Of a stretch of DNA of 64,000 bases, positions 7,899 to 62,697 are shown piece after piece. The stretch lies in contig CAWANH010000028.1 in assembly GCA_963783375.1 (NCBI GenBank), forward strand, positions 54,103 through 118,102, written 5' to 3'. Position 1 is the stretch's first letter. Each line of letters opens with the position of its first letter. Position numbers and translations under genes: made by a program. The notes below the pieces were generated by a model. That model had not been told where the DNA came from. It searched no databases and saw only the letters and a list, made by a program, of their open reading frames with translations. Source of the stretch: Candidatus Eiseniibacteriota bacterium (GTDB lineage: Bacteria > Eisenbacteria > RBG-16-71-46 > JABDJR01).

Positions 7899-8014
7899 CG
7901 GGGGTTCATGGGGTTGCGGGTTTTCGGGGGGAGAATGTGCTAGACTGCCCTTGCCTTTTGACCCGGTCTTCAACGGTCGGCCGCGGGTCGGCCTCCAATC
8001 CAGAGGAAAACCCG

Positions 8015-9226
8015 ATGACACGTATGAGAATGCTCCTGCCGCTCTTCGGGCTGGCCGTCGTGGCCGCCGCGATTCCCGCCGCGTCGAGCGCGGCGACCTC
8101 GAAGTACGCGAATTTCGACGAGGCCCTCGCCGCGGGGGGCGACCTGCAGAAACCCGTCCTGATCGACTTCTTCACCGAGTGGTGAGGCTCCTGTAAAGCG
8201 TTCGCCCGGGCGGCGGACTCCGACAGCAACATCCAGGATGCCTTGAGCGGGTTCGTGTTCCATCCCGTCGACGCCGAGAAGGGTGAGGGCGTGGAACTGG
8301 CCGAGAAGTACGGAATCATCGGCTACCCCACCTACGTCGTGGTCAACGCCGATGGAACCACCCTCGACCGGTGGGTCGGCTACGAGAAGAAGGCGTGGAT
8401 CGCCTCCGCGGACCAGGCCGTCGCCGATCCGACCACCATCGACGAGAAGATCGCGCGGTACCAGGCCCACCCCACCGCGGCCGACGCGGTCCGGCTCGCC
8501 GGCTACCACGACTCCAAGGGGGAGTATCCGGACGCGGTGAAGCTCTACCGCGCCGCCGCCCACCTCGATCCCTCCTCCGTCGACGCCTACCGGATGTCGA
8601 TCTTCAAGTCGACGTTCTACGGGGTGCGGGAGGAGAATTTCTCCGTGGACGACCTCCGGGCCGCGGGGGACGCGGTGTTCGCGGAGAAGGAGCCCAAGCC
8701 GGGGGACCTCCTCGACGTGGCGATGCTCATGGGTCTCGCCGCTTCGGGCTCCGATGGGAAGCTCGACCCCATTCCCTACGTGAAGCGGGCGATCGAGGAG
8801 ACGGATGGATCCACCGATCCCGGGGTGGTGAGAGCACGGACCCAACTTCTTCCCGACTACGCCCTCCACGTCCTGAAGGACTCAGAGAAGGCCGTGGCCT
8901 ACGAGAAGGCGTCCATGCCGGAGAAGTGGACGGAGGATCCGGGCCTGCTCAACGGCTTCGCCTGGTGGTGCTTCGAGAACATGGTGAATCTCGAGGAGGC
9001 GGAGAACCTGGCCCGGAAGGCGGTCGACCTGGCCGCTCCGGGCCGGGAGAAGGCGATGATCCTCGACACCCTGGCGGAGATCTGCAACGCCCGGGGCGAC
9101 TGCGATCAGGCGCTCTCGCTCAGCCGGCAGGCGTCCCAGGAAGACCCCAAGAGCAAGCACTATCCGGCCCAGATCGAACGCTTCCAGAAACTGTCCGAGC
9201 AGAAAGCGAACGGAGAGGGACGCTGA
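8015..9226 (+). CDS. Exported thioredoxin-fold (Thioredoxin_7-like) + TPR-like protein with in-frame UGA at 8183-8185; candidate selenoprotein (W-U-G-S-C)
   Basis: ATG 8015 has an AGAGGA RBS and a signal peptide (MTRMRMLLPLFGLAVVAAAIPAASSAA). The track ORFs ending at 8185 and starting at 8243 share one frame, separated only by TGA. The joined sequence reads LIDFFTEW-U-GSCKAF...VELAEKYGIIGYPTYVVVNADG. Confidence 0.7.
8200..8218 (+). promoter_or_regulatory. Candidate bacterial SECIS hairpin downstream of UGA 8183-8185
   Basis: 7-bp stem GTTCGCC / GGCGGAC (one G-U pair) with loop CGGGC (8207-8211). The stem starts 15 nt after the UGA. Confidence 0.4.
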
Positions 9227-9324
9227 TCGGGGTCTGATCCGCCCGGCCGCAGGCTTCAGCGTTTCGCGACGAGTTGAACGGTCCGCTCAGGCGGGCCGTT
9301 CCTCTGTTTACGGGACGCGCCGGG

Positions 9325-20174: not shown

Positions 20175-21548
20175 ATGAAACACGTCGCCCTTTTCCTGAC
20201 CCTGGCCCTGGTCCTGGCCGCCTGCGGGTCCGGCCCCCGGGAGAAGGCGCCCGCCTCCGGCGACGGCGCCCCCGCGGAAACCACGGCCAAGGCCGGAAAG
20301 CTGACCCTCCCCTTTCTGGCCGACGACTACGCCGGCGCCCTGAGCCAGGCCCGGGAGCGGAAGCTCCCCATCTTCATCGAGACCTGGGCTCCCTGGTGAC
20401 ACACCTGTCGCTCGATGAAGGCCTTCGTCTTTACCGATGAGGCCCTCGAGAGCGAAGCCGGGCGGTTCGTCTGGCTCGAGCTGAACACGGAACGCGCGGA
20501 GAACGCCCCGGTGGTGGCCGCCCTCCACGTCCAGGCCCTCCCTACCTATTACATCGTGGACCCGGAGAGCGAGCGCATCCTGGCCCGCCGGCTGGGCGGC
20601 GCCACCGTGGCCCAGCTCAAGGGCTTCCTGGACTCGGGCTACGACACCTTCGCCGGCACCGGACTCGCCCCCGCCGATCGCCACGTGGCGCGCGCCGAAT
20701 CGCTCTACGCCGCGGGGGACATGCCCGCCGCGATCGCCGCCTACCGCGTCGCCCTGGACGAGGGCGGCCCGGAATGGTCCGGCTATCCCATGACCATGGA
20801 AGCCCTCCTCTACGCGCTCCAGATGCACGAGGAGTTCGAGCCCGCGGCGATCCTCGCCCGGGAGAGCTATCCCCGCCTCCGCCGCACCGCCTCCGCGGCC
20901 AACGTGGCCGGGGTGGGGCTCGACAGCGCCCTGGAGCTGGCGTCCGACGACCCCGATCGGGCCGGGCTCATCCACGACCTCATGACCGACGCGGAGGAGG
21001 TCACCTCCGACCGCTCGATCCCCGTGGCCGCCGACGACCGGTCCTCGGTGTTCGGCTCGCTCATCTCGGCCCAGGAAAGCCTCGGGGATTCCGCGGCGGC
21101 GCGCGCGACCACCGAGGCCTGGGCGGAATTCCTGGAGGGCGAGGCGGCCCGGGCCCGGACCCCCGACGAACGCGCGGTGTTCGACTCCCACCGCCTGAGC
21201 GCCTACCTGGAGCTGGGCGAGCCCGAGCGAGCGATTCCCATGCTCCGGCGATCCGAGCGCGACCTCCCCGGCGACTACAACCCACCGGCCCGGCTCGCCG
21301 TCGCCTACCTCCGGATGGGCCGGCTCGACGACGCCCTGAGCGCCTCGGATCGCGCCCTGGCCAAGGCCTACGGGCCGCGAAAGCTCCGCATCCTCCTCAA
21401 CCGGGCGGACATCCTGGTCGCGAAAGAGGACCCGGCCGGGGCCCGCAGGACCCTGGAGGACGCCCTCGACCTGGCCCGGGGCATGCCGCCGGAGCAGCGA
21501 TCGAAGTCGATGATCGCCCGGATCGAAAAGCGCATCGCGGGGACATGA
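20175..21548 (+). CDS. Thioredoxin-fold + TPR-like lipoprotein with in-frame UGA at 20397-20399; candidate selenoprotein (W-U-H-T-C)
   Basis: ATG 20175 with a lipoprotein signal (LALVLAACGSG). Track ORFs ending at 20399 and starting at 20415 share one frame. The joined sequence reads [25 protein letters not shown]...VQALPTYYIVDPES, followed by a helical repeat region. Confidence 0.7.
20414..20429 (+). promoter_or_regulatory. Candidate bacterial SECIS hairpin downstream of UGA 20397-20399
   Basis: 6-bp stem GATGAA / TTCGTC (one G-U pair) with loop GGCC (20420-20423). The stem starts 15 nt after the UGA, the same spacing as at 8200. Confidence 0.4.
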
Positions 21549-24592: not shown

Positions 24593-25456
24593 TCAGACCG
24601 CGGGAACCAGCGTCCCGTCCTCGATGAGCCCGGAGACCACGTCGGGGGCCTCCGACGCATCCGCCCCCAGCTTCGTGATCTCACCGACCAGGGCATCGAA
24701 ATCCCGGGGGGCACCGGCAAAGGCCAGGAACTCGTAGAGGCCCCGGGTGATCTCCGTGGCCCCGGCGGCGAACCGCACGCGGGGACCGTCGTCCCGGACG
24801 AGTTCCAGGAGAAGGAACTCGGGCCGCGCCGGGTCGAGCCGGGTACCCGGCATGGACGCCGGGGAATCGAGCACGGCGCGGGCCAGGTCCCCGGTGGAGC
24901 CGGCGAGCGCCACGTGGATCGCCTCGTGGAGGTCGGCGGTCCGGCGGGGAGCGGTGTGAAGCGCCTTGTCCGTGGAGAGCCGCCAGGCCGAGCCCTCCCC
25001 GGGGTCCTCCGGAGACGGCGGGGCGTCCCGGTGAAGCCGGACGATCGCCTGCTCCAGCCGGGCCAGCGCGGTCACCCTTCGATCGGGCACGCTTCCCGCG
25101 GCGGCCTGATCGGCCAGGTAATCCCCGAAGGCCAGGGCCATCGATCCCCGCTCCTGGACCGAAGCGTGGAAGGGGGCGGAGCCGAAGAAGGCGAGGAGCG
25201 GGCCGGGACCTTCGGCCGAGCGCACGGCCAGCGCCCCCGCGGCCGGGTACTGCTGGAGAAGAATGTTGAGCGAGCGCACCGGGCGCTCGGAGTCGACGCG
25301 CCAGGCGCGCGGATCCGGCCCGAGAAGCCACCCCCGCTCCTCGGCGGTGAGATCGATCCCCGCCAGCGCTCCGTCGGGATCCCCCAGCACCCGCCGGGCG
25401 AACCCCGGGTCGTAGAGCATCCGCACCATGACCCGCTGGAGCGCGACGTGGCTCAT
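24593..25456 (-). CDS. Partner protein of the MNIO gene (occupies the MbnC/TglI/DUF2063 position); family uncertain
   Basis: ATG 25456 overlaps the MNIO stop (ATGA). The N-terminus LQRVMVRMLYDPGFARRVLGDPDGALAGIDLTAEERGWLLGPD resembles LigA/NHLP-type helical domains. Gene order matches known MNIO-partner pairs. Confidence 0.65.
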   Translation of the reverse strand: MSHVALQRVMVRMLYDPGFARRVLGDPDGALAGIDLTAEERGWLLGPDPRAWRVDSERPVRSLNILLQQYPAAGALAVRSAEGPGPLLAFFGSAPFHASVQERGSMALAFGDYLADQAAAGSVPDRRVTALARLEQAIVRLHRDAPPSPEDPGEGSAWRLSTDKALHTAPRRTADLHEAIHVALAGSTGDLARAVLDSPASMPGTRLDPARPEFLLLELVRDDGPRVRFAAGATEITRGLYEFLAFAGAPRDFDALVGEITKLGADASEAPDVVSGLIEDGTLVPAV

Positions 25457-26340
25457 CCGGCCCCCGTTCCCAGGAGCGGTGATCCGGAGAGCACCGAGGC
25501 GATCCGCGCGAAGCCCGGAAGGGTCTCGGGAAGGGGGTTTCGCTCGCACTCGAACACCACCGCCCGGAGGTTCGGGCAGCGGGGCACCAGGTGTTCGAAG
25601 ATCCTCCAGGTCTCGGCCAGCACCTCGGGGGTGTGGTCGTCTTCCACGTACTCCCATCCGTCGTGGGACCGGCCGCTCCCCCCCGCCACGTGCATCTCCA
25701 CGATTCGCTCCATGGGAAACCCGTCCAGGCCGGTGAGCGGCGCGTGCCCGTGGCTCTTCTGGTAGATGGCCAGGTGGGCGCAGTCGAGGAGCATCCCGGT
25801 GTCGGCGCGCCCGATCGCCCGGGCGAAGAAGTCCAGGAGATGGAGGTTCCCCAGGAACACCGCCCCGGGCGGGTTTTCGGGGAACACCTCGTAGCCCACC
25901 GACTCGCGCAGCCGGATCACGCCCTCGGCGATCGCCTCCGCCGAGGCCTCGGAGAGGATCGGGGGAAGGAGCAGCATGTGCCCAGGCTCGCGCCCCCCGA
26001 AATGCCACATCCCGGCATCCCCGCAGAACCAGGCCGGCCGGAGGGCGGCGGCCAGGGAACGAACCTCGTCCAGCCAGGCCGGCTCGAAGTCCTCGGGATC
26101 GTCCAGGTTCAGGTCGAGGAAGTGGTAGGTGGCGGGAAGCCCCAGCCCGGCCCACTCCCGGGCGTGTCGATCGAGCCCGGAGAGCGTCTCCACCCCGACC
26201 TCCAGGAAGCCGGCGTAGGCCGGGTGGAGATGCCGAAGCTCGGGCACGTCGAGACCGCGGGGGGAATCTCCCGCCCCGTATTCGGTAGATACTCCAAGAC
26301 CCAACCGGGGAAGCGCCAGGACACGCTGACTGAAGTCCAT
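25453..26340 (-). CDS. DUF692 family protein (multinuclear non-heme iron oxidase, MNIO; MbnB/TglH/BufB-like), divergent member
   Basis: Track ORF. The layout is DUF692-like: LGLGVSTEY, FLEVGVE, YHFLDLNL, LLLPPILSE, FPENPPG, MLLDCAHLAIY, VEMHVAGG, EDDHTPEV, LRAVVFECE. Confidence 0.8.
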   Translation of the reverse strand: MDFSQRVLALPRLGLGVSTEYGAGDSPRGLDVPELRHLHPAYAGFLEVGVETLSGLDRHAREWAGLGLPATYHFLDLNLDDPEDFEPAWLDEVRSLAAALRPAWFCGDAGMWHFGGREPGHMLLLPPILSEASAEAIAEGVIRLRESVGYEVFPENPPGAVFLGNLHLLDFFARAIGRADTGMLLDCAHLAIYQKSHGHAPLTGLDGFPMERIVEMHVAGGSGRSHDGWEYVEDDHTPEVLAETWRIFEHLVPRCPNLRAVVFECERNPLPETLPGFARIASVLSGSPLLGTGAG

Positions 26341-30990: not shown

Positions 30991-31680
30991 TCAGCGGTCC
31001 TCGAGCACCCACTGGACCGCCCGATAGACCAACTCGTTGCCGTTTTTGAGGTTGAGCTTGGTCTTGATCTTCTGCCGGTGGGCGTCGACGGTCTTGACGC
31101 TCAGATGGAGGTCCTGAGCGATCTCCCGGCTGGTCTTCCCCCCCCCGATGAGCTCGAAGATCTCGAGCTCCCGGTTGGTGAGCTGCTCCACCAGGGGACC
31201 GCTGGACGGCGTCCCGAAGTTGGAAATCGAAGAGAGCACGCGCTCCATGCCTCCTTCGCTCAGCCGGATCTTCCCCTGGAGGACGGTGCGGATCGCGGCC
31301 AGGATCTGCTCGCCCCCCTCGGACTTGCAGACGTATCCGGAGGCCCCCGCCCGAAGGCTGCGTTCGGCGTACAGCCCTTCGGCGTGCATGGAACAGACGA
31401 GCACCCGGCAGGACGGACGTTCCTGCCGGATCATGCGGATGAGATCCAATCCGGACATGTCGTCCAGGGAGATGTCCACCAGGGCCAGATCGGGTTCGAG
31501 CTCCTCCAGCATCTGAATGGCCTGGGACGCTTTGCCCGCCTCCCCACAGACCTCCAAATCGCTCTCCCGGCTGATGAGCTCGACCAGGCCCGTCCGCACC
31601 ACCGGGTGATCATCGACGATCAGGACCCGTCGGGGACGGTCGACCGGATCTCCCATTCGGGAACGGGGCATCTTGTTCAT
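30991..31680 (-). CDS. NarL/FixJ-family response regulator (REC + LuxR-type HTH)
   Basis: ATG 31680 overlaps the kinase stop (ATGA). REC motifs are VLIVDDHPVVR and DLALVDISLDDMSG. The HTH is LTNRELEIFELIGGGKTSREIAQDLHLSVKTVDAHR. Confidence 0.9.
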   Translation of the reverse strand: MNKMPRSRMGDPVDRPRRVLIVDDHPVVRTGLVELISRESDLEVCGEAGKASQAIQMLEELEPDLALVDISLDDMSGLDLIRMIRQERPSCRVLVCSMHAEGLYAERSLRAGASGYVCKSEGGEQILAAIRTVLQGKIRLSEGGMERVLSSISNFGTPSSGPLVEQLTNRELEIFELIGGGKTSREIAQDLHLSVKTVDAHRQKIKTKLNLKNGNELVYRAVQWVLEDR

Positions 31681-34600
31681 GCGGCGGCTCCCCCTCTCAA
31701 AGCACATCTGACGATGAGCCCGCCTCCGGGGGCGGATTCGAAGGTCAATGAGCCGCCGATCAGACCGGAGCGGTAACGCATGATCCTGATGCCCAGGCCC
31801 CTGGTCTCATCCGGCACCTCGAACTTCCCCGCACCGTCGTCGCGGACCTCCAGGACCAGATCGATTCCCTCGGCGGCCAGGGAGACCACGATCTCCGGCG
31901 CGCCGGAGTGCTTGACGGCGTTGTAGAGCGCTTCCTGCGCGATATAGAACAGATGCGTCGCGGTGAAGTTGTCCTCCACCAGAACCGGCCGGGCGCACTC
32001 GAACCGGCAATTACTCCGGAAACTGCTGCGTAGCCGGGAAACGAGGTCATCCAGGGCGCTCATGAGGCCGGCGGCGTCGACCTCGACCGGCATGAGTCCC
32101 CGCGCCAGGTCGTGGACCTGCTGTTTGGCCTCGGTGAGACTGGCCGCCAGGCGCTGAGCCAGCACGGCCTCCGGTGGCAGGGCCTCCTTGATCCTCCGAT
32201 GCAGGGTCTCGGCCAGGAGAGCCGCGCCCACGATCTGCTGGGCCAGGGTATCGTGGAGTTCCTGGCCGAGCCTGCGATGTTCCTCCACCACCAGGTCGGC
32301 GGTCTGCCGCTCCAGCTCCTCCCGCTCGAGCTCTTTCCGCACCACCACCCGGCCGAGTTGGGTGCCGCACAGGGACGCGGTGTCGAGGAGAAGGGCGTCG
32401 GGTTCGGAGTCCCCGCGACTCAGGAACTTCAAGACCCCCACCCTCCGCCTACCGACCACGATGGGAACGGTGACCGCGCCTCGGATCCCCGCCCGGCGAA
32501 GCACGTCGGCCGGATACGTGGAAATCGCATCGAGGTCGGTGGTCCAGGTCGGACGCACCTCCTCCATCTCCTCCCCCAACGGCCCCCTATCCTTCCCCTT
32601 CCGGGGCTTGCGGGCCGCCGCGTGCATCTTCAAGGATTCCAATTCGGGCTCGCCGAACCACCACGCCCCGGAATCCTCGAGGACCAGCGGGTCCTTCATC
32701 GAGTGGAGGTAGGCGTGACCCACCGGCCAGTCGAACCCGGCGCACATCTCCTTCAGTACGGCCGGGAATGCTTTCTGGATCGAATCGGCCTGGTTGGCGA
32801 TCACCGCGATCCGGCCCAGGAGTTCCAGGTAATGGGTGCGTTCGTGAACCCTGGCATCGAGCTGTTCGTTCAGGGTCCGAAGGGCTTCTTCGGCCGCCTT
32901 GAGCTCGGTCATCTCGATGAAGGCGACGACCACGCCGTCGACCCGGTCCCCGCTGATCCGATAGGGAAGGACGCGGCGAATGTACCAACGACCATCCTCG
33001 CAGCGGATCTGGGATTCCAGCTGGACCCGGGTCTCCATGACCCGTCTCGCGTCCGCTTCCATGTTCGCACCGGCCGCCGGAAGGGAAAGCTCCCGGATGG
33101 AACGGTGGAAATCGAGGGGCCGCAGGTGTAGGAATTCGCCCGCCGATTCGGTGAACCACTTGATGCACAAGGAGGGATCGAGAAAGACGGTGGGGATTCC
33201 GCTGCTGCTGATGAGGTTGGCCAGGTCGTTGTTGGCGGTCTCCAGGGCCACCACCTTCTCCTGGAGCTTCGAGTTGACGGCGGCCAGCTCGTCGATCAGC
33301 GACTGCAACTCCTCACCGGAGGTCTCCAGCTCCTCGTTGGTGGACTGGAGATCCTCGTTCATCGAGGTCATCTCCTCGTTGGCGGTCCGGAGTTCCTCGT
33401 TCGAGGTCTCGAGTTCCTCGACGCTGATCTGGAGTTCCGATCTGGCCTCGCGGAGCTGTTCCTCGAGGTGGTCGATTATGGCGATCTCGCCGGGGTCCGG
33501 GTCCATGGCGGGCAACGCGGCAATTCCCGCGGGCACCACTTCGCTGAAGGACACAAGGAGAAGTCCCTCGACCGAATTGGGAAGGGTCAACGGATCCACA
33601 ACGATCCGGAAGGCGTGCCCGCCGCCCTGGCCGGGAACCTCGAACGGGCCTCTGGCTATCGGCTTCCCGGTGCGCCTTGCCTTCAGGAGGGTCGCTCGAA
33701 GCTTGGGGTGAGTGGTCAACGGAGTCCAGGCGAACAGGTCGGTGGTCATCGCCCCTCGGGGGGGGGTCAGGTACGGGCTGGCGGCGCCGAAGGAGAAGAG
33801 GATCTCATCCCGGCCGTTCACCACCACGGACGGCGGAGCGAACCGGTTCAGGACCAGCTTCTTGATCGCCTCGACGAAGATGTCGTGATCGCGGCCCCTC
33901 AGCCCGTTGCGCAGCTGGCTTCGGGGGATCGGCGGTTTGGAAAAGCTTCGGAAATCCACATGACTCAGCCGGGTGGTCCCCACTTTCCGAAAGATCCGGT
34001 ACCGCTTGGACAGCGGTTCGAACAGAGCCTCTCCCGTACTCGTGGTTTCGGCGTTCCCCAGGAAGAGGCAACCACCGGGCGAGAGGGAGTAGTGGAAGAG
34101 CCGAAGCAGCCGTTCCTGCGCCTCGGGCACCAGGTAAATGAGGAAGTTCCGGCAGGAAACCAGGTCCATGCGGGAAAACGGGGGATCGGAAAGGAGGTTC
34201 TGCTCCGCGAACACCACCTTCTCCCGAACCTCCCTCTTGATCCGGAAGCCTCCGTCGAACCTCGTGAACGAGCGGCTTCGGCGCGCGGGACTCACTTCAG
34301 CGGCTCTCACGACCGGATAGGTCCCGGGACGGGCGACGGCAAGCGCGTCCGCATCGACGTCCGAGGCGAAGATCTGGATGTCACATGGTGATTGGGCTTC
34401 CTTCCTCGCCTCCAGGAGGAGGATCGCCATGGTGTACGCCTCTTCCCCGGTGGCGCAGCCGGGGACCCAGACCCGCACCGTCTCCCCCTCCCCCCTCTCG
34501 CGCGCCAGGGGTAGGAGCACGTCCTGCTTCAAGGTCTTCCACGCCTCGGCGTCTCGAAAGAAACGGGTCACGCTGATCAGGAGGTCCCGGGCCAATGCGC

Positions 34601-35465
34601 TTCTCTCGGCCGGCTTGTCGGAAAGGAGGCGGACGTAGGCTTCAAGGCTATCGAGCTGGTGGAGGCCCATCCGGCGATGAATCCTGCGGAAAAGAGTGCT
34701 CCTCTTGTAGGCGCCGAAGTCGTAGTGGCTGCCGGTGTTCAGGACGTCCAGCACCGACTGCACACCCGAGGTGGCCTCGGGCCGGTCCAGGTCGAACGGT
34801 TCCTCGCCGCGGACGTAGGTGTGCCCGAGGTAGCGCAGAAGGTGCGCGGGCATGGCCTCCACGTCCAGAATCCTGTCCACCAGTCCGGTGGCCATCGCGG
34901 CCCGGGGCATGCCGTCGTAGGCCGCCTTTTCCGGGTCCTGGACCAGAACCAATCCCCCCTGGGCCTTCACGTCCCGGAGACCGCCGGTGCCGTCAGCGCC
35001 CGTTCCGGACAGGATCACCGCCACCGCCTTCTCCCCGACCGCGGCGGCCATGGAGCGGAAGAAGTAGTCGATGGGATGGCGGGCCTCCATCCGGTCCTTG
35101 GGCTTCCGGATGTGAAACCGGCCTTTCTTCAACGAGAGGAGCCGTCCCGGCGGGGCGACGTAGACCCGATCGGCCGCCGGAGTCTCGCCCTCCTCAACCT
35201 GGCCCACGTGCATATCGGTTCGGCGGCCGAGGATCGAGGCAATCATGCTGTCCCGATCGGGGTCGAGATGCTGAATGACCACGAAGGCGGCGCCGGACTG
35301 GGACGAAAGCGAGGAGAAGAACTTCTGGAGCTGTTCGAGGCCCCCGGCCGATGCACCCAGGGCGACGATCGGAACGACGGAATCCCCACGGTCCGTGCGC
35401 GACGCCGGCGCGGACTTGGGGGACCTGTCTGCTTTCGAACCGAGGCGGGTTTGCTGTTCTACCAT
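31677..35465 (-). CDS. Multidomain sensor: CheB-type methylesterase + CheR-type methyltransferase + coiled coil + PAS + GAF + HisKA_3/HATPase histidine kinase
   Basis: Track ORF of 1262 aa. CheB-like: VALGASAGGLEQL, VILSGTGADGT. CheR-like: TRFFRD, VWVPGCATGEEAYTMAILL. A Glu/Leu-rich coiled coil, a PAS-like and a GAF-like region follow. ELHDTLAQQIVGAAL is a HisKA_3 H-box, and the HATPase is at the C-terminus. Confidence 0.9.
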   Translation of the reverse strand: MVEQQTRLGSKADRSPKSAPASRTDRGDSVVPIVALGASAGGLEQLQKFFSSLSSQSGAAFVVIQHLDPDRDSMIASILGRRTDMHVGQVEEGETPAADRVYVAPPGRLLSLKKGRFHIRKPKDRMEARHPIDYFFRSMAAAVGEKAVAVILSGTGADGTGGLRDVKAQGGLVLVQDPEKAAYDGMPRAAMATGLVDRILDVEAMPAHLLRYLGHTYVRGEEPFDLDRPEATSGVQSVLDVLNTGSHYDFGAYKRSTLFRRIHRRMGLHQLDSLEAYVRLLSDKPAERSALARDLLISVTRFFRDAEAWKTLKQDVLLPLARERGEGETVRVWVPGCATGEEAYTMAILLLEARKEAQSPCDIQIFASDVDADALAVARPGTYPVVRAAEVSPARRSRSFTRFDGGFRIKREVREKVVFAEQNLLSDPPFSRMDLVSCRNFLIYLVPEAQERLLRLFHYSLSPGGCLFLGNAETTSTGEALFEPLSKRYRIFRKVGTTRLSHVDFRSFSKPPIPRSQLRNGLRGRDHDIFVEAIKKLVLNRFAPPSVVVNGRDEILFSFGAASPYLTPPRGAMTTDLFAWTPLTTHPKLRATLLKARRTGKPIARGPFEVPGQGGGHAFRIVVDPLTLPNSVEGLLLVSFSEVVPAGIAALPAMDPDPGEIAIIDHLEEQLREARSELQISVEELETSNEELRTANEEMTSMNEDLQSTNEELETSGEELQSLIDELAAVNSKLQEKVVALETANNDLANLISSSGIPTVFLDPSLCIKWFTESAGEFLHLRPLDFHRSIRELSLPAAGANMEADARRVMETRVQLESQIRCEDGRWYIRRVLPYRISGDRVDGVVVAFIEMTELKAAEEALRTLNEQLDARVHERTHYLELLGRIAVIANQADSIQKAFPAVLKEMCAGFDWPVGHAYLHSMKDPLVLEDSGAWWFGEPELESLKMHAAARKPRKGKDRGPLGEEMEEVRPTWTTDLDAISTYPADVLRRAGIRGAVTVPIVVGRRRVGVLKFLSRGDSEPDALLLDTASLCGTQLGRVVVRKELEREELERQTADLVVEEHRRLGQELHDTLAQQIVGAALLAETLHRRIKEALPPEAVLAQRLAASLTEAKQQVHDLARGLMPVEVDAAGLMSALDDLVSRLRSSFRSNCRFECARPVLVEDNFTATHLFYIAQEALYNAVKHSGAPEIVVSLAAEGIDLVLEVRDDGAGKFEVPDETRGLGIRIMRYRSGLIGGSLTFESAPGGGLIVRCALRGGAAA

Positions 35466-55231: not shown

Positions 55232-56714
55232 CTACCGCAGCGCGGTCGCGGTCTCCCGGAGGAGCGCCCAGGTGAGGGCGACGTCCTCGGGGGTGGTGCG
55301 GAGGTTCCCCACCGCGAGCCGGAGGCCGAACCGGCCCCGGACCACCACGTGGGAGAGAAACGCCTGCCCGGAGGCGTTCACCGCCTCCAGGAGGGCCCGG
55401 TTGTGGGCCTCGATCGCCGGCTCTTCCGGGATGAGGTCCCCGGGGCCGGCATCCTCCGCGCGGGCCGGGGTGACCACGGCCGGGGGGATGTGGCGGAAGA
55501 GCACGGTGCTCATGGGGGCGGGGGCCAGCCGCTCCCAGTCCGAGGCCTCGTCCACCCACCCGGCGAAGGTCTGCGCCATCTCCACCGCGGCGCGGATCCG
55601 CTCCGCGACGCCCTCGGTCCCGAAGGTCCGAAGCACCATCCAGAGCTTGAGCGCCCGGAATCGCCGCCCCAGGGCCGGCCCGTAGTCCATGAGGTTCCGG
55701 GCCGTGCCCTGTTCGGGGGTCATGAGATAGGGCGGCACCAGGGAGAAGGCCTCGCGGATCACCTCGGGGCGCCGGCAGTAGAGCGCGCTGAGATCGATCG
55801 GCACGAAGAGCCACTTGTGGGGGTTCACCACGAAGCTGTCGGCGCGGTCGCATCCCTCCAGTACCCAGCGGTACTCGGGAACCGCCGCCATGGCTCCGCC
55901 GTAGGCCCCGTCCACGTGGAGCCAGATCCCCTCGCGCTGGCAAAGGTCGGCGATGGCGGGGATGGGGTCGATGCTGGTGGTGCTGGTGGTGCCCACCGTG
56001 GCCGAGACCGCCATCGGAACCCAACCGGCGCGGCGGTCCTCGGCCACCGCCCGGGTGAGCGCCGCCACGTCCATCCGGAACTCCGGGTCGGTGGGGATCC
56101 TCCGCACCCCGTCCTGGCCGAGCCCCAGGGTGAGGGCCGCCTTCTCCACCGAGCTGTGGGCCTCCTCGCTGGTGTAGAGCCGGAGCCGGGGGCCGCCGGC
56201 CAGCCCGCGCTCCCGCACCGCACCTCCGGTCGCGGCCTGGCGCGCCGCGGCGAGAGCCACCAGGGTGGAAACGCTCGCGGTGTCGTTGATGTGCCCGTCG
56301 AAGGTGTCGGGGAGCCCCAGCATCCGGCGAAGCCAGCCCAGGGCGGTCACTTCAAGTTCGGTGGCCGCGGGGGAGGTCCGCCAGAGCATGGCGTTGACGT
56401 TCAGGGCGGCGGTGAGCGCCTCTCCGAGAATCCCGGGCGCGCTTCCGGTGATCGAGAAGTAGGCGAAGAACCGAGGGTGGTTCCAGTGGGTGATGCCGGG
56501 AACCAGGATCTCCCGGAAGTCGCGGAGGGTCTCGTCCGAGGGGGACGGGACGGGCCGGAGGCTCCGCGGGAAGGGCCGCGGCGATCTCCCCGGGTCGGGT
56601 GCGGGCCAGGACCGGGTAGTCCCGGATGCGCTCCAGGTAGTCGGCGATCCAGTCCACCACCTCACGGCCGTGGCGGCGAAACTCCTCGGGACTCAGATCG
56701 CCCTGGCTCTCCAT
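55232..56714 (-). pseudogene. Pyridoxal-dependent (group II, aromatic-L-amino-acid-type) decarboxylase, split by a frameshift at G-run 56540-56544
   Basis: The N-terminal 50-odd codons, with a GGAGGAG RBS and ATG 56714 (MESQGDLSPEEFRRHGREVVDWIADYLERIRDYPV...), are in one frame. The remainder (…DETLRDFREILVPGITHWNHPRFFAYF…NPHKW…) is in the frame of ORF 55232..56665. Confidence 0.8.
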
Positions 56715-61281: not shown

Positions 61282-62697
61282 ATGCCCGACACCCAGATGA
61301 CCCGGGTCGCGGTGCTCGGGGGAGGACCGGGGGGCTACGCCGCCGCCTTCCTCGCCGCCGACCTGGGAATGGAAACCGTGCTGATCGACCCGGAAGCCAA
61401 CCCGGGCGGGGTGTGTCTCTACCGCGGATGCATCCCCTCCAAGGCGCTTCTCCACGTGGCCAAGGTCATCCACGAGTCGCGGGCCGCCGCGGACTGGGGG
61501 GTGACGTTCGAGGAGCCGCAGATCGACCTCGATCGGGTTCGCGCCTGGAAGAGCGAGGTGGTCGAGAAGCTCACCGGGGGCCTCGGGCAGCTCGCGCGGA
61601 AGCGCAACGTCACCTACATCCGGGGGACGGGCCGGTTCGAGAACCCCCGGAGCCTCCAGGTGGAGACCGAGGTGGGCACGGTGCGGGTGGGGTTCCGGGA
61701 CGCGGTGGTGTCCACCGGGTCGCGCCCCGCCGAACTCCCCTTCGCCCCGAAGAGCGGACGCATCATGGACTCCACCGCGGCCCTGGATCTCCCCGACGTT
61801 CCCGAGCGGCTCCTGGTGGTGGGAGGCGGCTACATCGGCCTGGAGATGGGCTCGGTCTACGCCGCGCTCGGCAGCAAGGTGACGGTGGTGGAGATGATGG
61901 GGAGCCTCCTCCCCGGGGTGGATGCGGACCTGGTGCGGCCCCTGGCCCGGCGGGTCGAGACCGATTTCGAGGCCGTCCACCTGGGGACGCGCATCGTCTC
62001 CATGGAGGAGACCGCTTCCGGGGTGGCGGTGGTCCTGGACGGAGCGGTGGAGGAGAAACGCCAGACCTTCGACCGGGTGCTGGTCTCGGTGGGGCGGAAG
62101 CCGAACTCGTCGAAGCTTGGCCTGGAGGGGACCGCGGTCCGGGTGGACGAGCAGGGCTTCATCCGGGTGAACGGCCAGCGCCGCACCCACGAGCCCTCGA
62201 TCTACGCCATCGGCGACGTGGCCGGCCAGCCCATGCTGGCCCACAAGGCGTCCCACGAGGGGAAGACCGCGGTCGAGGCCATCGCCGGCCACAAGGCGGT
62301 CTACGAGCCCGCCGCCGTCCCCGCGGTGGTGTTCACCGATCCCGAGGTGGCGTGGTGCGGGCTCACCGAGACCGAGGCCAAGGCCCGCGGGATCCCGATC
62401 GAGGTCGGGCGCTTCCCCTGGGGGGCTTCCGGCCGCGCGCTCACCCTGGGCCGCGCCGACGGGCTCACCAAGGTGCTGGTGGAGCCGGGTTCCGGGCGCG
62501 TGCTCGGGGTGGGGATCGTCGGCCCCGGCGCGGGAGAGCTGATCGCCGAGGGAGTCCTGGCGGTGGAGATGGCCGCCACCGCGCGGGACCTGGACCTCAC
62601 CATCCACCCCCACCCCACCCTCTCCGAGACCATGATGGAAGCCGCGGCCACCATCTTCGGCACCGCCACCGACGTGTACAAACCAAGGCGAAAGTAG
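61282..62697 (+). CDS. lpdA: Dihydrolipoyl dehydrogenase (E3)
   Basis: VAVLGGGPGGYAAA, the redox disulfide GGVCLYRGCIPSK, a second Rossmann VVGGGYIGLE, and the C-terminal HPHPTLSE. Confidence 0.95.
   Translation: MPDTQMTRVAVLGGGPGGYAAAFLAADLGMETVLIDPEANPGGVCLYRGCIPSKALLHVAKVIHESRAAADWGVTFEEPQIDLDRVRAWKSEVVEKLTGGLGQLARKRNVTYIRGTGRFENPRSLQVETEVGTVRVGFRDAVVSTGSRPAELPFAPKSGRIMDSTAALDLPDVPERLLVVGGGYIGLEMGSVYAALGSKVTVVEMMGSLLPGVDADLVRPLARRVETDFEAVHLGTRIVSMEETASGVAVVLDGAVEEKRQTFDRVLVSVGRKPNSSKLGLEGTAVRVDEQGFIRVNGQRRTHEPSIYAIGDVAGQPMLAHKASHEGKTAVEAIAGHKAVYEPAAVPAVVFTDPEVAWCGLTETEAKARGIPIEVGRFPWGASGRALTLGRADGLTKVLVEPGSGRVLGVGIVGPGAGELIAEGVLAVEMAATARDLDLTIHPHPTLSETMMEAAATIFGTATDVYKPRRK

Follow-up and report, generated by a model that had tools for sequence, protein, structure and literature searches.

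The stretch of DNA analysed here, called the window below, comprises 64,000 nucleotides (nt) of a contig assigned to Candidatus Eiseniibacteriota bacterium (CAWANH010000028.1 of assembly GCA_963783375.1, positions 54,103 to 118,102). Within it, one reading frame extends from ATG 8015 to the TGA at 9224-9226, with TGA 8183-8185 as its sole internal stop. An earlier note on this DNA, made from the letters alone, had described the same arrangement as two same-frame open reading frames (ORFs) parted only by that codon. Translation across the internal stop gives ...KPVLIDFFTEW-U-GSCKAFARAADSD..., where U stands for selenocysteine (Sec). We will argue that positions 8015-9226 constitute one gene, which very probably encodes an exported selenoprotein of 403 residues, with Sec being inserted at UGA 8183 under the direction of a selenocysteine insertion sequence (SECIS) in the messenger RNA. 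The features of the locus are the following:

8002-8007, + strand: Shine-Dalgarno-like sequence AGAGGA, 7 nt 5' of ATG 8015, kept in the orthologues L004 and L005
8015-9226, + strand: complete coding sequence of the predicted selenoprotein, 403 codons including Sec57, with the true stop TGA at 9224-9226
8015-8095, + strand: predicted signal peptide of the Sec (translocon) type, approximately residues 1-27, with an inferred cleavage site
8102-8404, + strand: thioredoxin-fold domain, residues 30-130, most similar to the DsbD gamma-domain and to domains of the PDI type
8183-8185, + strand: UGA, predicted Sec codon, residue 57, at the position of the N-terminal nucleophile of the redox motif
8183-8194, + strand: redox motif U-G-S-C, from the translation and the alignment of related loci
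8200-8218, + strand: putative bacterial SECIS hairpin, stem 8200-8206/8212-8218 (7 base pairs, bp), loop 8207-8211 CGGGC, from comparative evidence
8432-9199, + strand: all-alpha superhelical domain resembling tetratricopeptide repeats (TPR), residues ~140-395, from Pfam, an AlphaFold model and Foldseek
9276-9311, + strand: hairpin with a T-rich tail resembling an intrinsic terminator, 11-pair stem, 50 nt past the stop

The piece upstream of the internal stop was said in the earlier note to have its own ribosome-binding site and a signal peptide, and both are borne out. AGAGGA is found at 8002-8007, and the N-terminus MTRMRMLLPLFGLAVVAAAIPAASSAATS consists of a basic region and then a hydrophobic core, which is the pattern of a signal peptide. 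Among 103 distinct N-termini of related loci that likewise have TGA at this position (called TGA forms in the following), 96% contain a strongly hydrophobic stretch of 11 residues, and 91% have K or R within the first 10 residues. The third-position G+C content is high on both flanks of UGA 8183. A six-frame scan for in-frame TGA codons with high third-position G+C on both sides returned 23 places in the window, only two of which, 8183 and 20397, have the W-U-x-x-C context. The terminator-like hairpin beyond the gene is weak evidence, as one such site was found against 0.8 expected by chance.

That a gene caller would split the gene had been anticipated in the note, and this is indeed what is found in public data. 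The database entry for the window gene, P0001, is a protein of 323 amino acids (aa) on a 2,386,780-bp ENA contig (ERZ25039549 contig_24514), and copies identical to it are present in two independent Logan assemblies. This downstream piece is called from GTG 8255, and not from TTG 8243 as had been supposed. That it would lack the active site on its own, as the note says, is borne out, since it would start after the active-site helix. Orthologues at 88% and 77% identity are again called as two ORFs, the first of 56 aa and the second of 323 aa, and their DNA alignment with the window has the TGA conserved. In the 77%-identical one, L005, all of the ca 42 nt after the TGA except the first are unchanged, with substitutions in both flanks. 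It is important to point out that TGA 8183-8185 is identical in three independent assemblies (ERZ25039549, SRR28003197 and ERR11523667), and it is therefore not an error of one assembly.

The homology search was performed with the window protein as the query, with Cys in place of the stop. The relatives fall into two length classes, one of full-length proteins of ca 390-400 aa in which thioredoxin domains are called, and one of 320-335 aa. The shorter class makes up approximately half of the top matches; its members cover the last 80% of the query, are without a thioredoxin call, and are named 'TPR repeat protein' by JGI. The Cys homologues of 390-400 aa, on the other hand, align end to end with the window protein. 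The W-U-G-S-C of the window is aligned to W-C-G-P-C in these full-length proteins, and the UGA thus corresponds to the first Cys of the CxxC motif, exactly where the note had placed it.

A further 160 loci were fetched from species-representative genomes and metagenomes, giving 166 loci in all. The codon aligned to the first Cys is TGA in 136 of these and TGC or TGT in 27, while it is not resolvable in the remaining 3. The TGA forms span 37-88% protein identity to the window protein, and the metagenome-assembled genomes (MAGs) that contain them are labelled as Eisenbacteria, Zixibacteria, Krumholzibacteria, Gemmatimonadota, Ignavibacteria and Acidobacteriota. When the downstream domains are placed on a neighbour-joining tree, no fewer than 13 changes between Sec and Cys are required; the two states are therefore interleaved, as in other selenoprotein families. 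The resolving Cys of the redox motif is invariant in both groups (118/118 TGA forms and 25/25 Cys forms). The Trp that precedes Sec is replaced in a minority of the TGA forms, giving D-T-U, D-Y-U, E-F-U, E-H-U or V-L-U (examples are L040, L049, L055, L123, L142 and L164), and the W of W-U-x-x-C is therefore not obligatory in the family.

The layout of the gene is preserved together with the codon. In the 103 distinct TGA-form loci, the upstream piece always consists of a signal peptide and the first thioredoxin strand, ca 56 residues in total, and its median length is 56 residues in the TGA forms compared to 55 in the Cys forms. The thioredoxin domain continues through the 23 codons from the TGA to GTG 8255, which are conserved at the protein level. 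Public gene calls split the locus in every TGA-form locus inspected, whereas the Cys forms have the same layout in one undivided gene. Homologues in which the two halves are consistently separate genes, a possibility raised in the note, were never found. The truncated public entries of the family include P0001-P0003, P0009-P0011, P0054 and similar ones. Gene neighbourhoods are conserved only within lineages, with synteny in at most 17 of 78 loci, and no DsbD/CcdA-type or otherwise obvious redox partner stood out among the neighbours in these 78 loci.

Directly after the UGA, where the note had proposed to look for a SECIS element, there is a conserved and covarying hairpin that is confined to the TGA forms. 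In the window, its stem begins 14 nt and its loop 21 nt after the UGA. Anchoring 116 distinct TGA-form sequences on the UGA yields a gap-free alignment (A3) with a common helix of 7 bp, which starts 14 nt past the UGA and closes a 5-nt loop C-G-[U/G]-G-[A/C], with an invariant G at loop positions 2 and 4. RNAalifold, unprompted, returns exactly the same helix. Over the 116 sequences, 96.7% of the cells of the helix are paired, compared to 88.8% in column shuffles, and none of 500 shuffles is as high. Shifting the 3' partner by 1-3 columns lowers the pairing to 35-52%. The number of double-change cells is 58, against 15.4 expected, and the observed covariation is likewise reached in none of 500 shuffles. 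Compensatory double changes occur at four of the seven pairs: the loop-closing pair goes from CG to UA in 24 sequences, a change from GC to AU is seen in 6 and another from CG to UA in 3, and at the basal pair GC, UA and CG all occur. In the same columns of 25 Cys forms, only 52.6% of the cells are paired, which is no better than shuffles.

The bacterial SECIS (bSECIS) model quoted in PMC13188914 has a loop of 3-9 nt, a stem of 4-16 bp, a distance of 16-37 nt between UGA and loop, a minimum free energy (MFE) of at most -7.5 kcal/mol, and a G within the first two positions of the loop, as a rule with G or U after it. The window hairpin, with an MFE of -10.9 kcal/mol, satisfies every one of these constraints. 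As in the consensus bSECIS (bSECISearch, Zhang and Gladyshev, summarised in PMC13188914), it is a stem-loop located directly after the UGA and within the coding sequence, with an upper stem of 7 bp, a loop of 5 nt, and U or G after the G at loop position 2. It differs from the consensus in that the element of this family is highly compact and keeps its sequence across phyla to an unusual degree, fixing the residues F-A-R-[E/A]-[A/V].

This last property can also be seen from the coding side. At codons +6 to +10 after the UGA, the third-position entropy is 0.17-0.80 bits in the TGA forms and 0.53-1.79 bits in the Cys forms, and only in the TGA forms are the residues restricted to F-A-R-[E/A]-[A/V]. 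Outside these codons, no difference between the two groups is seen. The comparison points to a constraint at the RNA level on the coding sequence after the UGA, present in the TGA forms only. One Cys form is an exception: L038 (L038:2717-2760, Zixibacteria MAG JAAYTW010000262.1) has TGC, yet the hairpin is present, TTTGCCCGTGAGGCAAA. Its protein is 82% identical to that of the TGA form L041, and it looks like a recent Sec-to-Cys replacement in which the RNA element has not yet decayed. With the family covariance model R1, only 8174-8233 is found in the window (69.3 bits, the next best being 10.5 bits); this match shows uniqueness and is not independent support, because the window sequence belongs to the model.

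As to the use of TGA in general, it is the stop codon of 20 of the 35 likely genes in the window, and in several of the genes that end with it the Pfam domain stops only a few residues short of that codon. Hence TGA normally acts as a stop codon here and the recoding is local, in agreement with the view taken in the note that no alternative genetic code is involved.

Some of the results weigh against a Sec-decoded gene. No tRNA-Sec, selA, selB or selD was detected in the 64-kb window or in the ca 1.4 Mb of fetched flanks of the relatives, which is what the search covered. Pfam gave no Sec machinery among 30 window genes, tblastn gave no match to E. coli SelA, SelB or SelD in the window and the 166 loci, and ARAGORN found no tRNA in the window and no tRNA-Sec across all loci. 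Regarding the RNA, the window hairpin by itself does not exceed shuffled G+C-rich sequence in stability (z -0.5; z -0.16), and its loop lacks the N1-N2 closing pair, an optional feature of the commonest loop pattern in the published model. The element also matches none of the Rfam SECIS families at E up to 10 over 8100-8320, where just two chance matches on the opposite strand are obtained, and no Rfam family reaches its gathering threshold in the whole window. Since single-sequence folding of 8183-8250 and of 8160-8290 cannot be distinguished from shuffles (69% G+C window), the case for a SECIS rests on the comparative evidence given above. The absence of Sec machinery from the window and the fetched flanks, together with the missing Rfam match, would fit a recoding of the UGA outside the SelB/Sec pathway, i.e. 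near-cognate or suppressor-tRNA read-through with Trp, Cys or Gly, for which the hairpin would be a general stimulator. We consider this very unlikely, as the codon that is recoded corresponds in every case to the catalytic Cys of CxxC, the classic Cys/Sec pair, the hairpin agrees with the bSECIS consensus in its geometry and in its G-[U/G] loop, and TGA terminates most other genes in the window.

Another explanation is that there are two genes, one for a 56-residue secreted peptide that ends at TGA 8183 and one for an independent TPR protein that starts at GTG 8255. It is what the public calls imply at every TGA-form locus inspected, and the JGI name 'TPR repeat protein' for the downstream piece is in line with it. 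However, the upstream piece would then be a signal peptide with the first thioredoxin strand, and the downstream piece would have neither active site nor helix 1. The protein-level conservation of the 23 codons between TGA and GTG 8255, continuing the thioredoxin domain, and the undivided Cys forms of identical layout also speak against it, which makes two genes a highly improbable arrangement. The TGA is, furthermore, only one base away from TGC and TGT, and the naming of the source contig seems to indicate a long-read assembly, such that one could think of a sequencing or assembly error, or of a pseudogene. To this we can assign practically no probability. The same TGA is seen in three independent assemblies and in 136 loci across several phyla, the coding conservation is intact on both sides of it, and the hairpin that is specific to the TGA forms co-occurs with it; at the level of the family, error or pseudogene is already excluded. 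We retain the interpretation of 8015-9226 as a single gene with a probable SECIS-directed Sec codon.

The protein encoded by this gene is composed of two domains following the predicted signal peptide. With Cys substituted for Sec, residues 30-130 match the Pfam families Thioredoxin (PF00085, 46.5 bits, cut-off 23.5), Thioredoxin_7 (PF13899, 45.7 bits, cut-off 27) and Thioredoxin_2 (PF13098, 42.5 bits, cut-off 27). Further downstream, TPR_14 is above threshold and TPR_12 also matches. The AlphaFold model considered is that of the Cys homologue P0004, which is 52% identical to the window protein, and it has a mean predicted local distance difference test score (pLDDT) of 93.4. In this model, the N-terminal 30 residues are disordered or of low confidence, residues 35-137 adopt a thioredoxin fold, and residues 142-395 form an all-helical superhelix, with the redox motif located between the strand 48-53 and the helix 58-69. 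Using Foldseek, the N-terminal part is matched to DsbD-gamma with target-normalised TM-scores of 0.66-0.71 and 32-34% identity, and the C-terminal part to the superhelices of consensus TPR, OGT and LGN. In a sequence profile search of the PDB, the thioredoxin domain is matched by 2kuc (E 2.8e-22), DsbD-gamma (E ~1e-15) and PDI domains.

The TPR domain has characteristic motifs of its own, an invariant A-W-W-C-F-E-N (with Cys319, 8969-8971) and L-D-T-x-A-E-I-C-N. The motif E-I-C-N-x-x-x-x-C, with Cys357 (9083-9085) and Cys363 (9101-9103), is also widely kept. Conserved Cys residues in a TPR domain that is predicted to be exported may form a disulfide of structural importance, bind a metal, or act together with the U-x-x-C centre as a redox relay.

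Thioredoxin-fold selenoproteins with a UxxC motif are a well-known class, and new thioredoxin-like selenoprotein families appear regularly. A 2026 inventory of the selenoprotein families of prokaryotes (PMC13188914) lists a UxxC selenoprotein thioredoxin (PF00085) and a UxxC 'thiol:disulfide interchange protein' family (PF13098), and also a Trx7/PDZ family (CxxU), a UGSC-containing family (NF041046) and many others. With the PF00085 and PF13098 selenoproteins, the window protein has in common the thioredoxin fold, the use of Sec for the N-terminal nucleophilic Cys of CxxC, an in-frame UGA with a bSECIS hairpin immediately after it, and numerous Cys homologues; it also scores above threshold on both profiles. 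What sets it apart from the descriptions of these proteins is the signal peptide and the TPR superhelix of ~250 residues, with its motifs AWWCFEN and LDTxAEICN.

This architecture was not recognised in the earlier note as a described selenoprotein family, and NCBIfam, Rfam and PMC13188914 agree with that judgement. There is no model or entry for the family in Pfam, NCBIfam, Rfam or the 2026 inventory PMC13188914, and in the text of the inventory the words 'TPR' and 'tetratricopeptide' are absent. In NCBIfam release 20, no model is reached by the window protein, and no selenoprotein model at its cut-off. The UGSC-containing family (NF041046) was considered in view of the U-G-S-C motif and rejected, as NF041046 is absent from the NCBIfam matches obtained with E up to 0.01. 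A selenoprotein family with thioredoxin and TPR domains (Trx-TPR) is not mentioned in the BSepDB and deep-Sep papers either, and a full-text literature search for one that combines these domains with a signal peptide gave nothing relevant. We regard the family as a new one within a familiar class of selenoproteins, with conventional decoding.

Two known systems are worth comparing in this context. CnoX/YbbN (E. coli YbbN, PDB 3QOU; COG name 'thioredoxin-like negative regulator of GroEL') likewise has an N-terminal thioredoxin domain and C-terminal TPR, and its COG name is given by JGI to Cys-form members of the present family. 3QOU is also the only full-architecture match in the PDB (Foldseek rank 5, E 3e-5). 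However, CnoX is cytoplasmic, whereas the family of the window protein has a signal peptide (96% of the 103 TGA-form N-termini). In addition, 3QOU superposes poorly on the P0004 model, with a TM-score of 0.22-0.30 and a root-mean-square deviation of 22 Å, and the 60 best PDB sequence matches that are listed do not include YbbN. The fusion of thioredoxin and TPR domains is thus shared with CnoX/YbbN, but neither the cytoplasmic location nor a specific similarity to YbbN is found, and the window protein is not assigned to that family. To our knowledge, CnoX is not a selenoprotein.

The best matches to the thioredoxin domain, the DsbD gamma domain and PDB 2KUC ('putative disulphide-isomerase'), are all periplasmic redox domains. 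DsbD has, however, membrane and alpha domains, which are missing in the family of the window protein, whose motif is W-U-G-S-C (W-C-G-P-C in the Cys forms). Membership in DsbD was rejected, as NF001419, the best NCBIfam match, gives 48.3 bits compared to a cut-off of 330, with only the C-terminal domain of the profile being matched, and the structural model has no membrane domain.

On the basis of these results, the following mechanism can be proposed. Translation would start at ATG 8015, and the ribosome would not terminate when it arrives at UGA 8183. Instead, the mRNA hairpin 8200-8218 would act as a bacterial SECIS and recruit SelB-GTP-Sec-tRNA(Sec), such that selenocysteine is incorporated at residue 57. 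The N-terminal signal peptide would direct the chain via the Sec translocon to the periplasm, where the protein would consist of a thioredoxin domain similar to DsbD-gamma and PDI, with the U-G-S-C centre, and the TPR superhelix of ~250 residues. Its most likely function would be that of a thiol-disulfide (selenenylsulfide) oxidoreductase whose client proteins are held by the TPR domain. The UGA and the Cys aligned with it, the recurrence of this UGA in several phyla, the covariation in the hairpin and the fold of two domains are observed, and the binding of SelB, the insertion of Sec, the export, and the redox and client-binding function are inferred from the established bacterial Sec pathway. 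In these terms, the window protein may be the envelope counterpart of the cytoplasmic Trx-TPR chaperedoxin CnoX/YbbN.

The other in-frame TGA with a W-U-x-x-C context belongs to a second gene of related design:

20175-21548, + strand: second candidate for an exported Trx-TPR selenoprotein, predicted Sec codon 20397-20399

Its signal is of the lipoprotein type (LVLAAC), the motif around U reads W-A-P-W-U-H-T-C, and the domains are Thioredoxin_7 and TPR. Its identity to the gene at 8015-9226 is 20%, in the thioredoxin domain alone, and the two are distant relatives. Its own family has more than 3,000 relatives in the database, again with full-length (435-495 aa) and short (375-395 aa) proteins, and TGA 20397 is conserved in homologues at 53-72% identity. 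For the hairpin after this UGA, four sequences were available, with no covariation and with two competing helices; the putative SECIS is unlike that of the first gene, scoring 4.8 bits with R1. The presence of two independently recoded genes in one genome gives further support for Sec decoding in this organism. Truncated public entries exist for this second family as well (P0121-P0126 and similar), and in both families they are labelled 'TPR repeat protein' or 'hypothetical protein', with the redox domain and the signal peptide missing.

Some other genes of the window can be mentioned briefly. For the genes near its two ends, 605-1654 and 61282-62697, a look-up of the exact products gave no database record. 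The gene at 55232-56665 (- strand) was examined as a candidate for SepSecS and rejected, since its weak Pfam match of 26.6 bits reflects the similarity shared by proteins of the pyridoxal phosphate (PLP) fold; it encodes a pyridoxal-dependent decarboxylase (Pyridoxal_deC, PF00282, 306 bits). At 25453-26340 (- strand) there is an enzyme of the MbnB/TglH/ChrH family (Pfam PF05114, E 3e-20), which modifies precursors of ribosomally synthesised and post-translationally modified peptides (RiPPs), and this hints at a peptide natural-product locus nearby. The gene at 31677-35465 (- strand) codes for a 1,262-residue hybrid of CheB methylesterase, CheR methyltransferase, PAS, GAF and HisKA_3 histidine kinase, and is adjoined by a gene for a LuxR-type response regulator at 30991-31707 (- strand).

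Taken one step further, the results may point to a large and so far uncatalogued family of exported Trx-TPR selenoproteins, distributed over several, mostly uncultured phyla of the FCB group. In this family, Sec would be the commoner state in the sampled loci and also the state at the root of our rough tree, and the SECIS would dictate part of the active-site helix. Together with the second recoded Trx-TPR family, this would indicate an unrecognised selenium-dependent 'periplasmic chaperedoxin' system that protects or folds envelope proteins. We give this wider proposal about an even chance of being correct.

For hundreds of genes, the redox domain, the signal peptide and the dependence on selenium are invisible in public data because gene callers stop at the Sec codon, and a family profile combined with the SECIS model R1 would repair these annotations. 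The family also provides a clean natural example of an RNA structure that constrains the protein sequence it overlaps with. For the biology of these bacteria, the family would extend the use of selenium to phyla of soil and sediment about which little is known (Eisenbacteria, Zixibacteria and Krumholzibacteria), and it suggests that a redox or chaperone function in their cell envelope depends on selenium.

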